A stretch of DNA of 21,521 bases from IMG/VR virus record IMGVR_UViG_2645727635_000012. One strand, 5' to 3'. Numbering within the stretch: position 1 is the stretch's first letter; every line of letters starts with the position of its first letter. The stretch comes from a virus (lineage: Duplodnaviria > Heunggongvirae > Uroviricota > Caudoviricetes). A model generated the notes under the pieces. It did no database searches and was not told where the DNA came from. It saw only the letters and a list, made by a program, of their open reading frames with translations. Below are positions 8,560-12,249 of the stretch, piece by piece. A program made the translations under genes and the position numbers.

Positions 8560-8595
8560 ACTGTTATTATAGTCATACATGATCGCCTGTACAGA
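8560..8595 (-). promoter_or_regulatory. Candidate activator-dependent promoter for the Mor/C-family gene
   Basis: Perfect TATAAT on the minus strand (plus 8566..8571) about 30 nt upstream of the start codon; poor -35 (CTGTAC), as in activator-dependent Mu middle/late promoters. Confidence 0.35.
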
Positions 8596-8597
8596 CC

Positions 8598-8625
8598 ACA
8601 AAAAAGCCCCTGCATGGCAGGGGCT
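8598..8625 (-). terminator. Intrinsic terminator downstream of the cargo gene
   Basis: Perfect 9-bp stem AGCCCCTGC-atg-GCAGGGGCT followed on the minus strand by a U6 run. Confidence 0.7.
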
Positions 8626-8635
8626 AAACTAAGTC

Positions 8636-9112
8636 TTATTTAGTCAGGTCTAGAATAACCAGGCCTTTTCTTGATTCTATTTGCTCTTTACCAAAAACAA
8701 ACGAATCAAAACAATCCATACGATATTCTTTAAACTGATTTCTTGAACGTTCCAGAAACTGCCTGTCATCCCTGATAACGTTAGACCAGTAATCCTGTAG
8801 CTGGTTTTTCATTTTTATGCAGGAACCATACACAGGATCAAGCGGGTCGTCCCCCAGTTTACTGGCCTGTTCATCCAGTTGTTTTAGTCCTTTTTTGATA
8901 TTCTTCCACTCTTCAATATTTCCCTGCTGATACTGCGATGCAGCTTCTGGCATAGCGTAATAAAGTTTTCCACTTTCCCGAAGTATCTGTTCAGCCAATG
9001 GCTTCATATCCTGATAACGTTTCAGTTCCTTTTGCGCCTGTTCCTCTGTCTGTGCCAGCACAGAACAAGAGAAAATAACCCCTACTAAACAAAACAACCA
9101 TTTTTTCATCAT
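8636..9112 (-). CDS. Secreted or periplasmic protein of unknown function (cargo gene, lower GC than neighbours)
   Basis: 158 aa with N-terminal signal peptide MMKKWLFCLVGVIFSCSVLA; visibly AT-rich codon usage; start overlaps GemA stop (ATGA); followed by its own terminator. Confidence 0.7.
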   Translation of the reverse strand: MMKKWLFCLVGVIFSCSVLAQTEEQAQKELKRYQDMKPLAEQILRESGKLYYAMPEAASQYQQGNIEEWKNIKKGLKQLDEQASKLGDDPLDPVYGSCIKMKNQLQDYWSNVIRDDRQFLERSRNQFKEYRMDCFDSFVFGKEQIESRKGLVILDLTK

Positions 9113-9507
9113 TGATTTCTCCTTCTTGAATCTTTAACCAGCGCCACCATCACTCCAAAAAGCTGTTCATCCGTCAGCCATTCGATCACATGTTGCTTAT
9201 ACATGTGAGATGCCAGTCCTTCCGCATACGCCCAGGAACGACCGGCATCAGCCAGTAACGCTTCAATTTTGGATAATACCGATTTTCTGCTCATTGCAAC
9301 ACGAGGGCGGCGACCTTTACCGGCGGGGGCCTTGCGCGGAAATCCCTGTTCATGCATGTATTCCCGGATGATGCGCAGTTCATCGAGATTGCAGCGTGTG
9401 GTGCTGGTTTTACCGGTCAGACGGGCCAGCGTCTGGCGATAAAGGGCATCATCCCACCCCAGATACGCCTGACCGGCTTTAATGGCCCCGATCATCTTTT
9501 TCAGCAT
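9109..9507 (-). CDS. gemA: GemA-like protein (Mu gp16 family, DUF1018)
   Basis: Start trimmed to the internal ATG with GAGGAT Shine-Dalgarno; motif GWDDALYRQTL...GKTS...LDEL...GF matches the gp16/GemA pattern; lies upstream of the Mor/C gene as in Mu. Confidence 0.75.
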   Translation of the reverse strand: MLKKMIGAIKAGQAYLGWDDALYRQTLARLTGKTSTTRCNLDELRIIREYMHEQGFPRKAPAGKGRRPRVAMSRKSVLSKIEALLADAGRSWAYAEGLASHMYKQHVIEWLTDEQLFGVMVALVKDSRRRNQ

Positions 9508-9757
9508 GTTTGTTATCCTCAAAACGCACGGTAAAACGTGAAACGCCAATTCCTGACAGGAACGCAGCGGCACGATCAAGAGACAGCCACGTCTTGTAAT
9601 CGCCACGGCGTTCCTGTAGAAAATAGGACACCCCGGCGCGGCGATTCACAGCGAAGAGGTGATACACACCACCGAACCGCTGCACGACGAACTCATCCAC
9701 GCCACCGCTTTCAGCCTGTTGCCTGAAAGCTGCCATTCCGACTTGTTCAATCTTCAT
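9479..9757 (-). CDS. Hypothetical protein (about 92 aa)
   Basis: ORF trimmed to the internal ATG at 9757; the alternative upstream ATG lies in the centre of the palindrome; overlaps GemA start. Confidence 0.5.
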   Translation of the reverse strand: MKIEQVGMAAFRQQAESGGVDEFVVQRFGGVYHLFAVNRRAGVSYFLQERRGDYKTWLSLDRAAAFLSGIGVSRFTVRFEDNKHAEKDDRGH

Positions 9758-9760
9758 AAT

Positions 9761-9806
9761 GACCAAAACACTACTTTTGGCAGACCAAAACATATGTTTT
9801 GGTCTG
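9761..9806. promoter_or_regulatory. Perfect 26-bp palindrome CAGACCAAAACATATGTTTTGGTCTG (9781..9806) plus an extra GACCAAAAC half-site (9761..9769); candidate operator
   Basis: Read directly from sequence; located between the small basic-protein genes and the 92-aa gene. Confidence 0.5.
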
Positions 9807-9824
9807 CTATTGGTTATTATTTAA

Positions 9825-10007
9825 TCACTTTGCGTTAGTGTGATTCTTCCAGCGGTTTTGCGCCGCACTGGGCTTTTTGCAACAACTGTGCCCCATCACC
9901 CCGCAACACCCTGTCAACCTCACTCGTCTGTTACTAATCCTCAACCATCGCCAGACCCCAACACCGTTTCTTCGAGCTAACAGAATCTTTGCTTTACGGT
10001 TTTTCAT
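9825..10007 (-). CDS. Small basic Cys-rich protein (60 aa; CCGVMGHSCC)
   Basis: ATG overlaps the stop of the upstream 57-aa ORF (ATGA); very basic composition. Confidence 0.4.
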   Translation of the reverse strand: MKNRKAKILLARRNGVGVWRWLRISNRRVRLTGCCGVMGHSCCKKPSAAQNRWKNHTNAK

Positions 10008-10177
10008 CGTTTTGCTCTCCTGCGTTTCTTTGCTTCGCGTCGTGCAGCTGCAATACCGGTATGGCGCTTTGGTGCCGGGATGATGCTGTCAGCCATCAGG
10101 GCATGTGGCTTTGCAATTAGCGCAGAAGCCCAAAAACGAGTCGGGTATGGTAATAAACCGATAAACGCTACACGCAT
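10004..10177 (-). CDS. Unannotated 57-aa protein: hydrophobic N-terminal half, poly-basic tail (RREAKKRRRAKR)
   Basis: Not in the ORF track (under 60 aa); strong AAGGAGG Shine-Dalgarno 5-6 nt upstream; ATG overlaps stop of the 165-aa gene (TAATG); manual translation. Confidence 0.45.
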   Translation of the reverse strand: MRVAFIGLLPYPTRFWASALIAKPHALMADSIIPAPKRHTGIAAARREAKKRRRAKR

Positions 10178-10674
10178 TACGCACCTCCTTTGGCGTCAAT
10201 ATTTACAGCCTGGCAAGCCTCGTTGAGTACCCAGTCAACCGCGTCTTTCCATGCTCCGGTTTCGACTGGCGGATTCTCACACTTTACCTGTTCATAGAAA
10301 CGCACTGCTTTAACTAGTCCTTCCGGCACTACCGACGCTGGCGGGGCAGCATAAAGCTCATGCATTCCATCAGGTAGCGAGTGACCTACATACTCACTGA
10401 ACCCATCAACACACATGCATCCATCTTCAACAATGCATGACGCTACTGGCAAAGCCACCTCCCGTGCCTCCAGTTCTTCTGCCCACTCCCGAAGCCCTTC
10501 AATCTCACCATTACGAGCTATCAGATCGCGACACAGTCTTTCGTTTTCATCCAGCAACGCCTGCACAACCTCCGGCGTAGCCGCAGCATGAAAAGCCTGT
10601 AGGTTCTGCCACGTCGTATCCCCCTTCGCGGCCTCTGTCACCTCACGCAGTGCCTGATAGTTAATCTCGCTCAC
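10177..10674 (-). CDS. Hypothetical protein, possibly ead/Ea22-like family (165 aa)
   Basis: N-terminus MSEINYQALREV...PEVVQALLDENERL resembles the ead/Ea22-like family from memory; Cys-rich middle; overlaps upstream gene. Confidence 0.5.
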   Translation of the reverse strand: MSEINYQALREVTEAAKGDTTWQNLQAFHAAATPEVVQALLDENERLCRDLIARNGEIEGLREWAEELEAREVALPVASCIVEDGCMCVDGFSEYVGHSLPDGMHELYAAPPASVVPEGLVKAVRFYEQVKCENPPVETGAWKDAVDWVLNEACQAVNIDAKGGA

Positions 10675-10930
10675 TGGTTGCCTCCTTTTCCCATGTTTTC
10701 AGACTTTCACCACAGAACGGGCAAAAACACATGGCAACACCACGACCGACATATTGGCCGGAGTGAATTTGAGCAATGTCTAAGCCTGGCTCGCTGGTGT
10801 TTATATTCACGCGTTCCGGGATAAATATGCCTTTACTCTTAAAGGCTGGATTTCCATATTCGAGTGCTTTTGCCAGTACCGCACACGGTTCTATCTGATT
10901 GCCATTAATTCGACACTTTAATTCACTCAC
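10661..10930 (-). CDS. Small zinc-ribbon-like protein (about 89 aa; CxxxxxxxxxC ... CFCPFC)
   Basis: Start trimmed to GTG with GGGAGGAG Shine-Dalgarno 5 nt upstream; four to five Cys in zinc-ribbon-like spacing. Confidence 0.55.
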   Translation of the reverse strand: MSELKCRINGNQIEPCAVLAKALEYGNPAFKSKGIFIPERVNINTSEPGLDIAQIHSGQYVGRGVAMCFCPFCGESLKTWEKEATSERD

Positions 10931-11091
10931 TTCAACTCCTCCCGACGACGTTCCTGAAGTTCCAGCATTGCGGCCCGGAAATCCTGCCACCATTCCTCAT
11001 CGGCAACGGGTGTGTTCCGCTCCAGCACCTTGTCAGCATCGGCAATCAGTCTGGTCAGGCTCTTATCGCTTATTCTGGTTTGCTGGTTCAC
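10927..11091 (-). CDS. Unannotated 54-aa acidic protein, GTG start
   Basis: Not in the ORF track; AGGAGG Shine-Dalgarno 7 nt upstream of GTG; start overlaps upstream stop and stop overlaps downstream start (GTGA both sides). Confidence 0.45.
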   Translation of the reverse strand: MNQQTRISDKSLTRLIADADKVLERNTPVADEEWWQDFRAAMLELQERRREELK

Positions 11092-11312
11092 TGCGCCGCC
11101 TCCTGTTTTGCCACTTTAAACGCCCGTAACATCGGAACCGTTTTACCGGTGATGACGGTTTTCATTAAAAGGCCACCGCCACTCTGGTGGCGCACTTCAG
11201 GAGCCACAAACAGCGCCGCATCCACAACCCGGCAATAGCGACGGAACTCCCAGAACCAGCAGGTAACAATGATTTTTGCGGTGACTCCGTAGTCATAAAA
11301 TTCAATATTCAT
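11088..11312 (-). CDS. Hypothetical protein (74 aa)
   Basis: ORF in the coupled chain; overlaps neighbours by 4 nt. Confidence 0.5.
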   Translation of the reverse strand: MNIEFYDYGVTAKIIVTCWFWEFRRYCRVVDAALFVAPEVRHQSGGGLLMKTVITGKTVPMLRAFKVAKQEAAQ

Positions 11313-11536
11313 TTGCAGTTAAACCTTCTTTTGTGACGTTCTACAGCGGCTTTCATGGCGTTGTGTACTGTTCTTTTAATAATCCGGTGTCCCGCACTGT
11401 CATAGAACCGCCACCGGGAAGCCCCCGGATATTTAGGGAACTCAACCGCCGCGCTACCGTCATTCATCCTGTATTCGTGGCGTTCTCCGGGAGGCTGGTA
11501 TATTGCTTCGGTAACACTGAGAAGTTTAAAAGCCAT
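11309..11536 (-). CDS. Hypothetical protein (75 aa)
   Basis: ORF in the coupled chain; starts 3 nt after the DUF2786-like gene. Confidence 0.5.
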   Translation of the reverse strand: MAFKLLSVTEAIYQPPGERHEYRMNDGSAAVEFPKYPGASRWRFYDSAGHRIIKRTVHNAMKAAVERHKRRFNCK

Positions 11537-11538
11537 CG

Positions 11539-12249
11539 TTACCCCCTCCCCAGTGCCAGCGGTCTGTTGCTCTGACCATTAACCCCCTGATGCAGCCTGG
11601 CGTTTTTCCCGGCGATAAAACCGGCAGTAGCGGCAAACTCTGCACCCCGACACGCTTTAGCTGTGCGCATATCCCCGTCGCGCAGTCCTTTAGTGCTGTG
11701 CAGGTTCTTTCTGTAAAGCTCAAGGCGGCTTTTTTCTTCCGGGGAGACGTCATACACCGCAATGACATCACGGGCACCAAAGACCCAGCCTTCGCAGAAC
11801 TGGTCGCCACGGGCTACCCGTGTGGACGGACCACAACGTCTGCAGTGTTTATCCTGATATTTCTTGCGCTCTGCCATCATCTGACGGGAAAGCACATCAA
11901 ACGCGTAGGCCGCAATTTCCGGGCGACTGTCAGGACCATAAAAACGAACGTAACGTTTGAGTGAACCAGAAGCCCGGTATTCACCTGAGATGTAACACTC
12001 GACACCGAAGGCTTTACATACCAGGTCACACAGGATGTGCATATAACGCGGCGGTGTACTGGCGTCACTCGGCGCACCCGCGCTGGCAGCTTCCTGAATG
12101 TCGAACAATTCCGCGTCGTTTTCGCTGATGCCATGCTGGCGCATATAAGCCTGGGCTTTTGCAATAGCGTTAGCGGCTTCTTCCGGGCTTGATGTTCCTC
12201 TGGCAAGGCGTAACAGTTTTTTGATTTTGGCAATGTATTTATCTTTCAT
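11539..12249 (-). CDS. DUF2786-like prophage early protein (236 aa)
   Basis: N-terminal KIKKLLRLA...SSPEEAANAIAKAQAYM is typical of DUF2786; common in prophage early regions. Confidence 0.65.
   Translation of the reverse strand: MKDKYIAKIKKLLRLARGTSSPEEAANAIAKAQAYMRQHGISENDAELFDIQEAASAGAPSDASTPPRYMHILCDLVCKAFGVECYISGEYRASGSLKRYVRFYGPDSRPEIAAYAFDVLSRQMMAERKKYQDKHCRRCGPSTRVARGDQFCEGWVFGARDVIAVYDVSPEEKSRLELYRKNLHSTKGLRDGDMRTAKACRGAEFAATAGFIAGKNARLHQGVNGQSNRPLALGRG

Follow-up and report, generated by a model that had tools for sequence, protein, structure and literature searches.

We analyzed the interval 9825-11091 of a 21,521-nucleotide (nt) stretch of viral DNA (IMG/VR record IMGVR_UViG_2645727635_000012; the whole stretch is called the window below). 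The minus strand of the window carries a Mu-like (transposable) Escherichia prophage, and the interval is tiled by five minus-strand open reading frames (ORFs), termed genes A to E, each with a Shine-Dalgarno sequence (SD) ahead of it:

10927..11091, minus strand: gene A, 54 amino acids (aa), acidic, GTG start, AGGAGG 7 nt upstream, phrog_14672 (6e-34)
10661..10930, minus strand: gene B, 89 aa, GTG start, SD GGGAGGAG, phrog_4030 (5e-29)
10177..10674, minus strand: gene C, 165 aa, GTG start, SD AAGGAGG, Ead/Ea22-like, Pfam PF13935
10004..10177, minus strand: gene D, 57 aa, ATG start, SD AAGGAGG, isoelectric point (pI) 12, phrog_13831 (2e-36)
9825..10007, minus strand: gene E, 60 aa, ATG start, SD AGGAG, pI 11.9, phrog_1380 (8.5e-30), last in the coupled chain

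The ORFs, their starts and their SDs were read directly from the DNA and agree with those described in an earlier note on this stretch. All five genes, as well as the two small genes upstream of them (encoding 74 and 75 aa), have full-length matches to PHROG families of unknown function, and the matches of A, B, D and E span essentially the whole profiles (14672, 4030, 13831 and 1380, respectively). Altogether, A to E are genuine protein-coding genes of the early accessory operon of a Mu-like prophage and belong to catalogued, uncharacterised families.

A packed gene chain in the early region of a Mu-like prophage

Among complete records, the E2348/69 prophage is the closest; it is 94% identical across 9700-11400 and is annotated in the order Mu transposase, AAA ATPase, DUF3164, ANR regulator, DUF2786, a run of small genes, GemA/gp16, Mor, holins and terminase. 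Pfam domains were found in the window at 11539-12249 (DUF2786/DUF7168), 10177-10674 (Ead_Ea22) and 9109-9606 (GemA). Because of the synteny with E2348/69 and the DUF2786 and GemA matches, the interval 9825-11091 is placed in the early accessory region, between the transposase/ATPase/DUF2786 genes and the GemA/Mor genes. The equivalent position in Mu is the semi-essential early region. A STEC313 Mu-like prophage fills the same slot with unrelated genes; since related Mu-like prophages fill it differently, the slot is a variable cargo site.

The chain extends three genes further upstream, to 12249, and thus comprises eight genes (12249-9825) separated by spacers of no more than 2 nt. Every start codon in this run lies at the previous stop or at most 14 nt before it, and all seven successive junctions show overlap or near-abutment with an SD inside the upstream gene. 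The junctions read GTGA between A and B, TAATG between C and D, and ATGA between D and E, while those upstream read GTGA (74-aa gene and A) and ATGA (75-aa and 74-aa genes). The earlier note had assigned every junction among the five genes to one of these three types, which is correct except between B and C, where the GTG of C at 10674 and the stop of B at 10661-10663 create a 14-nt overlap. The SDs are embedded in the last codons of the preceding genes, namely CAG GAG GCG (74-aa gene, for A), GGG AGG AG (A, for B), AAG GAG GCA (B, for C), AAA GGA GGT (C, for D) and CGC AGG AGA (the last Arg codons of D, for E), and the corresponding peptide tails are Q-E-A, R-E-E, K-E-A, K-G-G and R-R-R. Codons 53-55 of D are invariant at the DNA level, and the poly-Arg tail of D is therefore partly set by the SD of E.

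The layout of the chain exceeds chance expectation. The minus strand of 9825-12249 holds six SD-led ORFs of at least 50 aa and four coupled junctions, against means of 0.30 +/- 0.54 (maximum 3) and 0, respectively, in 1000 dinucleotide shuffles; by the same count, the plus strand of this region holds zero of either. With such junctions and SDs at successive genes, the layout is suited to translational coupling, as had been claimed.

Gene C, the D-E cassette and genes A and B

Over residues 2-96, gene C matches Pfam PF13935 Ead_Ea22 (E = 1.5e-14; 55.2 bits, with a cut-off of 27), which bears out its earlier description as ead/Ea22-like, and it shares 43% identity with lambda Ea22 across its N-terminal 61 residues. 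The protein is modular in that its N-terminal part matches PHROGs 250 and 368 and its C-terminal part PHROGs 26213 and 660; it combines an Ead_Ea22 N-terminal region, a C-terminal domain of its own and a K-G-G-A tail, a variant of K-G-(G)-E. A sequence search of the PDB with C returned nothing significant. Ea22 of lambda and of Shiga toxin (Stx) phages is early, dispensable and prolysogenic, and has a modular architecture (PMC7093339, PMC10834534, PMC8614690); the prolysogenic phenotype and a coiled-coil tetramer have been described for the lambda and Stx-phage proteins only (PMC7093339, PMC10834534). The C-terminal domain of Ea22 is variable, and all Ea22 proteins are reported to end in a basic-Gly-Glu ('+GE') motif of unknown significance (PMC7093339).

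We collected 162 IMG/VR loci with D or E, among which the two genes occurred together in 148 and formed 86 distinct D-E regions; the D homologues fell into 78 clusters. Pfam Ead_Ea22 was present in the gene preceding D at 59 of 78 distinct loci. The junction of this preceding gene with D reads TAATG or TAGTG in 75 of the 78, and the D/E junction reads ATGA in 59 of 86. At the DNA level, 9840-10192 shares 79-92% identity with phiV10, Stx phages and P1-like phages, and D-E directly follows an ead/Ea22-like gene in the annotated phiV10, Stx2-86 and RCS47. D-E is thus a mobile two-gene cassette whose place is behind an Ea22-like gene, and it occurs in phages of the lambdoid Stx, P1-like, epsilon15-like and Mu-like types. 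Approximately 27 loci possess a paralogue of E (E', 58 aa, MKNRKAKRLFLQRPVRVVELVISNHK...QNRRKKGYAVR) in the order D-E'-E, mostly with ATGA on both sides (e.g., L080, L116 and L152). The phiV10 genes p50 and p51 are a pair of the E'/E type.

The earlier note ascribed a hydrophobic N-terminal half to D. This part is proline-rich (five prolines in residues 10-36) and stays below the transmembrane threshold, with a maximal 19-residue Kyte-Doolittle mean of 1.25, and no membrane helix (some 19 or more hydrophobic residues), as would be expected of a type I toxin-like peptide, was predicted in D. In E, the motifs MKNRKAK.L, SNR and KPSAAQNRWKNH are invariant and the centre is variable, with at least four central alleles; other alleles read MKYYGMMDCGFC, YRYLGFREWSSIRFYGVW or FSFSGIAREGV in place of the version in the window. 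E was described earlier as basic and Cys-rich; the former agrees with its pI, and the latter does not extend to the family, in which no conserved Cys column was found and other alleles and E' have 0-2 Cys elsewhere. Judging from these sequences, the four cysteines of E are an allele-specific accident. The family is narrow, as a profile search of 1.84 billion representatives yielded 40 relatives, all of them small, and no link to a larger family; a PDB sequence search with the E profile gave nothing significant.

For the C/D junction, we covered 10177-10200 of the window and the 3' ends of the Ea22-like genes in L008-L162. The tail of C (...IDAKGGA) encodes the SD of D. The Ea22-like proteins preceding D possess at least 10 unrelated C-terminal domains and nevertheless share the tail ...AAGIRIKGGE or ...KGGA. 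The tail codons AAA GGA GGT GAG TAA TG are near-invariant behind these domains, almost without synonymous variation, and AAGGAG is retained even where the tail peptide is KESA or KENA. Because the codons are near-invariant and AAGGAG is kept where the peptide changes, the '+GE' tail of Ea22 is probably explained by the embedded SD for the downstream gene.

Relatives of A were gathered with a degenerate DNA pattern, and its GTG and SD recur in several genomic contexts. An A-like stretch of 50 residues is internal to full-length Ead/Ea22-like proteins (L043 and L010), directly after the coiled coil, and a similar segment makes up the C-terminal portion of a 121-aa protein. The L043 protein shares 60% identity with A at its residues 87-138 (E = 5e-21), and its residues 2-88 are Pfam Ead_Ea22. 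On these sequence grounds, A is a stand-alone copy of the segment that follows the coiled coil in some full-length Ead/Ea22 proteins.

The homologues of B in 43 loci share the same GTG (or ATG) start, 6-8 nt after AGGAGG, and the sequences ahead of this start are of at least 10 unrelated kinds, with no conservation of their in-frame translation. The gene after B is often Ead-like and again overlaps B by 14 nt, also in cases where it is only 36-39% identical to C. In L208 (2501-3088), an in-frame deletion has fused the initial 26 codons of B with the Ead-like gene C. Residues C6, C16, C70 and C73 are invariant in the 43 homologues, which span the Enterobacterales (Escherichia, Salmonella, Citrobacter, Kosakonia, Enterobacter and Yersinia), and C68 is unconserved. 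Because of the four invariant cysteines, which supply conserved metal-ligand residues in two pairs, these positions probably form a zinc site. The earlier description of B as zinc-ribbon-like draws its support from these cysteines; no PDB fold was matched by structure, a PDB sequence search with the B profile gave nothing significant, and no similarity to zinc ribbons was found.

Function, coding status and start sites

Altogether, we regard the five genes as a mosaic around an Ea22-type gene in the early non-essential accessory operon of a Mu-like prophage, with a coupled layout and a role analogous to that of Ea22, and give this reading a probability of roughly 0.75. The mosaic comprises a detached Ea22 segment (A), a four-Cys protein often found before Ead-like genes (B), an Ead/Ea22 protein with its own C-terminal domain (C) and a basic cassette (D-E). 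As the SD lies in the last codons of the preceding gene and stop and start are close together, a ribosome ending one gene would pass on to begin the next, and one long early transcript would yield all of the proteins jointly. By analogy with Ea22 of lambda and Phi24B, the genes would most likely be dispensable and act early, modulating either the choice between lysis and lysogeny or the physiology of the host. As a speculation, D and E may be nucleic-acid-binding proteins or Ea22-binding partners of the acidic C.

Several points weigh against this reading. Translational coupling or reinitiation between the genes is what we infer purely from the geometry of the junctions, and transcription from a single early promoter from the organisation of Mu, together with the lack of a strong internal terminator. 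The AlphaFold 2 model of B is moderate (predicted local distance difference test, pLDDT, of 70) and has no fold match, and the AlphaFold model of E is poor (pLDDT 65; predicted template modelling score, pTM, 0.22). Lambda ea22 ends in ...GIRIKGE (AAA GGA GAG TGA) with no D or E after it, and no D/E remnants were found downstream of it; the tail may therefore also have a role at the protein level, or be a vestige. Finally, E. coli M8 possesses A' (62 aa), E' (58 aa; intact but unannotated, L225 2805-2981) and E (60 aa), with no B, C (the Ead gene) or D. Thus, the link of the E family to Ea22 is not obligatory.

A wider reading takes the Ea22-like gene, D and E as one mobile functional module across four unrelated temperate-phage types, in which the constant D and E would act with the swappable C-terminal domain of Ea22 (e.g., against various factors of the host or of rival phages), an arms race (anti-defence or exclusion) would account for the hypervariable parts and '+GE' would be the ribosome-binding site of the downstream gene. 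Taken as a whole, we consider this unlikely. Slightly less likely still is the proposal that the acidic Ea22-like protein and the basic D and E form a toxin-neutraliser or an anti-defence/exclusion module, with the C-terminal domain of Ea22 and the centre of E engaged in an arms race. The charges are complementary (net -18 in C, against +12 in D and +16 in E), and the three genes are tightly linked and by their layout co-expressed; the diversity of the C-terminal domains upstream of D and of the central E alleles, the tandem E paralogues and the location in a variable cargo slot would fit as well. Nevertheless, the centre of E is under purifying selection within alleles (a ratio of nonsynonymous to synonymous polymorphism, pN/pS, of 0.27 in E1), and the sole ratio above 1 (2.66 in E2) comes from a pS of 0.011. 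We found no co-variation of D or E alleles with the type of Ea22 C-terminal domain, the E alleles assorting freely, and E occurs without C or D in M8. D has no membrane helix, and the published Ea22 phenotypes are prolysogenic, not defensive (PMC7093339). PADLOC returned no match for A to E, its library being one of defence systems and not of anti-defence proteins; NCBIfam gave no meaningful matches for A to E, and Pfam matched C alone. The roles in host take-over, anti-defence or toxicity suggested in the earlier note thus gained no support from PADLOC, NCBIfam or Pfam for A, B, D and E, nor from the predicted topology of D.

Far less probable is the view that the sub-60-aa ORFs (A, D and the borderline E) are untranslated and that their conservation stems from recent horizontal spread of the DNA or from a cis role, such as recombination linkers or RNA structure at mosaic joints. 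D does lie where a linker would be expected, between the hypervariable C-terminal domain of Ea22 and the centre of E, with approximately 90% DNA identity across very different phages. RefSeq skips E in E2348/69 and E' in M8, and the antisense frame that shares wobble positions has low pN/pS values (0.42 for D and 0.53 for E) and is nearly stop-free over D, which is an expected artefact. Nonetheless, we reject this view on codon-level evidence. The frames of D and E are intact and stop-free in the 86 distinct loci, with indels of whole codons; the pN/pS values in the proposed frames are the lowest (0.36 for D and 0.44 for E, with zero stops in 55-60 distinct sequences), and four of the other five frames gave approximately 0.9-1.6, with stops. 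Conserved residues switch codon families (AGC, AGT or TCA at Ser28 of E, five codons at Arg30 of E and four at Arg14 of D), so that selection acts on the protein and not on the DNA. Furthermore, start codons, SDs and overlap junctions are kept across loci, the diverged E paralogues keep the protein motifs, A occurs in the same frame inside larger proteins, and an Rfam scan of the whole window found zero RNA families. The claim that the small ORFs are real was thus upheld by purifying selection on D and E, the recurrence of the B start, the presence of A inside larger proteins and the membership of C in Ead/Ea22.

The least credible alternative is that B starts at ATG 10993, encodes 110 aa and overlaps A. 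The frame is uninterrupted after this ATG, and one 110-aa version has been deposited in GenBank (P0139), but the extension of 21 residues is unconserved; the peptides read in frame ahead of the start in more than 10 other contexts are unrelated or stopped within 4-11 codons, with the GTG/ATG and AGGAGG in the same place; the PHROG profile and the 43 homologues align from residue 1-2 of the 89-aa protein; and RefSeq uses a 270-nt form. Since the GTG 10930 start and its SD are kept across unrelated contexts, we rejected the 110-aa form as an over-extension.

The earlier note regarded three of the genes as missing or mis-started. This is true of its mechanical ORF list, in which a length cut-off of 60 aa removed A (54 aa) and D (57 aa) and a first-start rule gave B as 110 aa from ATG 10993. 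The exact sequences of A to D are already in NCBI as hypothetical or ead/Ea22-like proteins, and all five genes have PHROG families. The exact E sequence was absent from a collection of 15 billion proteins, and a literature search with the peptide sequences found no matching paper. Only E is unannotated in this lineage, as a new member of phrog_1380; an intact 62-aa E allele in E2348/69 (L001 6060-6250) is also unannotated in RefSeq.

The practical value of these results lies in annotation. Small, GTG-started, overlapping phage genes are called inconsistently, as exemplified by E missed in E2348/69, E' missed in E. coli M8 and B over-extended in one GenBank record, and comparative evidence settles their frames and starts. 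Ea22, which is encoded in the exo-xis region of lambda and has been studied for how it affects the induction of Shiga-toxin prophages, is accompanied by two conserved small genes with very basic products; parts of Ea22 (gene A) occur as free genes; and the '+GE' tail, unexplained in the literature, coincides with the ribosome-binding site of the next gene. The finding leaves the understanding of such operons unchanged, and its most useful by-products are the corrected starts, the Ea22-D-E cassette, the recognition that A is a segment detached from Ea22, and an explanation of the tail by the SD.

Flanking features and comparison with known systems

The remaining features of the chain and its downstream border are as follows:

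11539..12249, minus strand: DUF2786/DUF7168 gene, Pfam PF10979 (5e-13) and PF23771 (2.5e-29), first of the packed run, stop 2 nt before the next start
11309..11536, minus strand: 75-aa basic protein, phrog_9400, exact sequence in NCBI as a hypothetical protein
11088..11312, minus strand: 74-aa protein, phrog_1001, last codons CAG GAG GCG holding the SD of A
9761..9809, no strand assigned: two adjacent palindromic units, with a perfect 11-bp hairpin just past the stop of E

The E2348/69 RefSeq counterpart of the 74-aa gene is named a DUF4752 family protein and has 104 aa. In the window, the 74-aa gene cannot be extended upstream, and no Pfam DUF4752 match was found at E < 0.1.

The palindromes at 9761-9809 read GACCAAAAC-ACTAC-TTTTGG and GACCAAAAC-ATAT-GTTTTGGTC, with a spacing of 22 nt. 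E2348/69 carries a compensatory change in the hairpin stem (C:G to A:T), and the coding strand has no U-tract. The palindromic units mark the end of the coupled chain and could be an operator or an RNA hairpin. The next gene (9479-9793) has a longest ORF of 104 aa, the ATG of which lies inside the hairpin loop; its RefSeq relatives use a downstream ATG giving 92 aa (MKIEQ...), and the protein cluster holds both lengths.

On the minus strand, the sole strong terminator in the vicinity lies at 8605-8625, upstream of mor. Within 8566-8625, an intrinsic terminator (AGCCCCTGC-CAT-GCAGGGGCT and a T-run) is followed by a good sigma-70-like promoter (TGTACA-16-TATAAT) just before the Mor gene. This order of terminator and promoter suggests that the early transcript ends near 8605-8625 and that mor has its own promoter.

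Overlaps of 1-4 nt between stop and start (ATGA, TAATG or GTGA), with the SD in the upstream gene, are a textbook arrangement of phage and bacterial operons. The five genes differ from it at one junction only, the 14-nt overlap of B and C, and they are arranged in the way usual for early accessory operons of phages. Like the semi-essential early region of Mu (kil ... gemA, mor), which consists of small dispensable early genes, the block lies after the transposition genes and before GemA/Mor. None of A to E matches a named Mu early gene, and the cargo of the slot differs even among close Mu-like prophages.

The block also resembles the exo-xis region found in lambda and in Stx phages, where small, non-essential early genes are likewise grouped around ea22, and C has the Ead_Ea22 N-terminal region of lambda Ea22. 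The exo-xis region comprises orf60a, orf63, orf61, orf73, ea22 and variable downstream ORFs. In contrast, the block described here is flanked by DUF2786 and GemA in a Mu-like prophage instead of by exo and xis, it lacks orf60a, orf63, orf61 and orf73, and lambda possesses no homologue of D, E, A or B. As in Ea22 proteins, C has a variable C-terminal domain and a tail of the K-G-(G)-E type (PMC7093339), and D-E is one of the 'variable downstream genes' that follow ea22 in Stx phages such as Stx2-86 (PMC8614690).

Further close counterparts are phiV10 p48-p51 (and VT2-Sa p08) and RCS47 gp058-gp056, annotated only as hypothetical proteins, in which an Ead/Ea22-like gene is followed by D (phiV10 p49, 177 nt) and members of the E family (p50 and p51) on the same strand and with overlaps. 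These loci differ from the window in the C-terminal domains of Ea22 and in the neighbouring genes, and some have an extra E paralogue, whereas their DNA is 85-92% identical to that of the window across 9840-10192.

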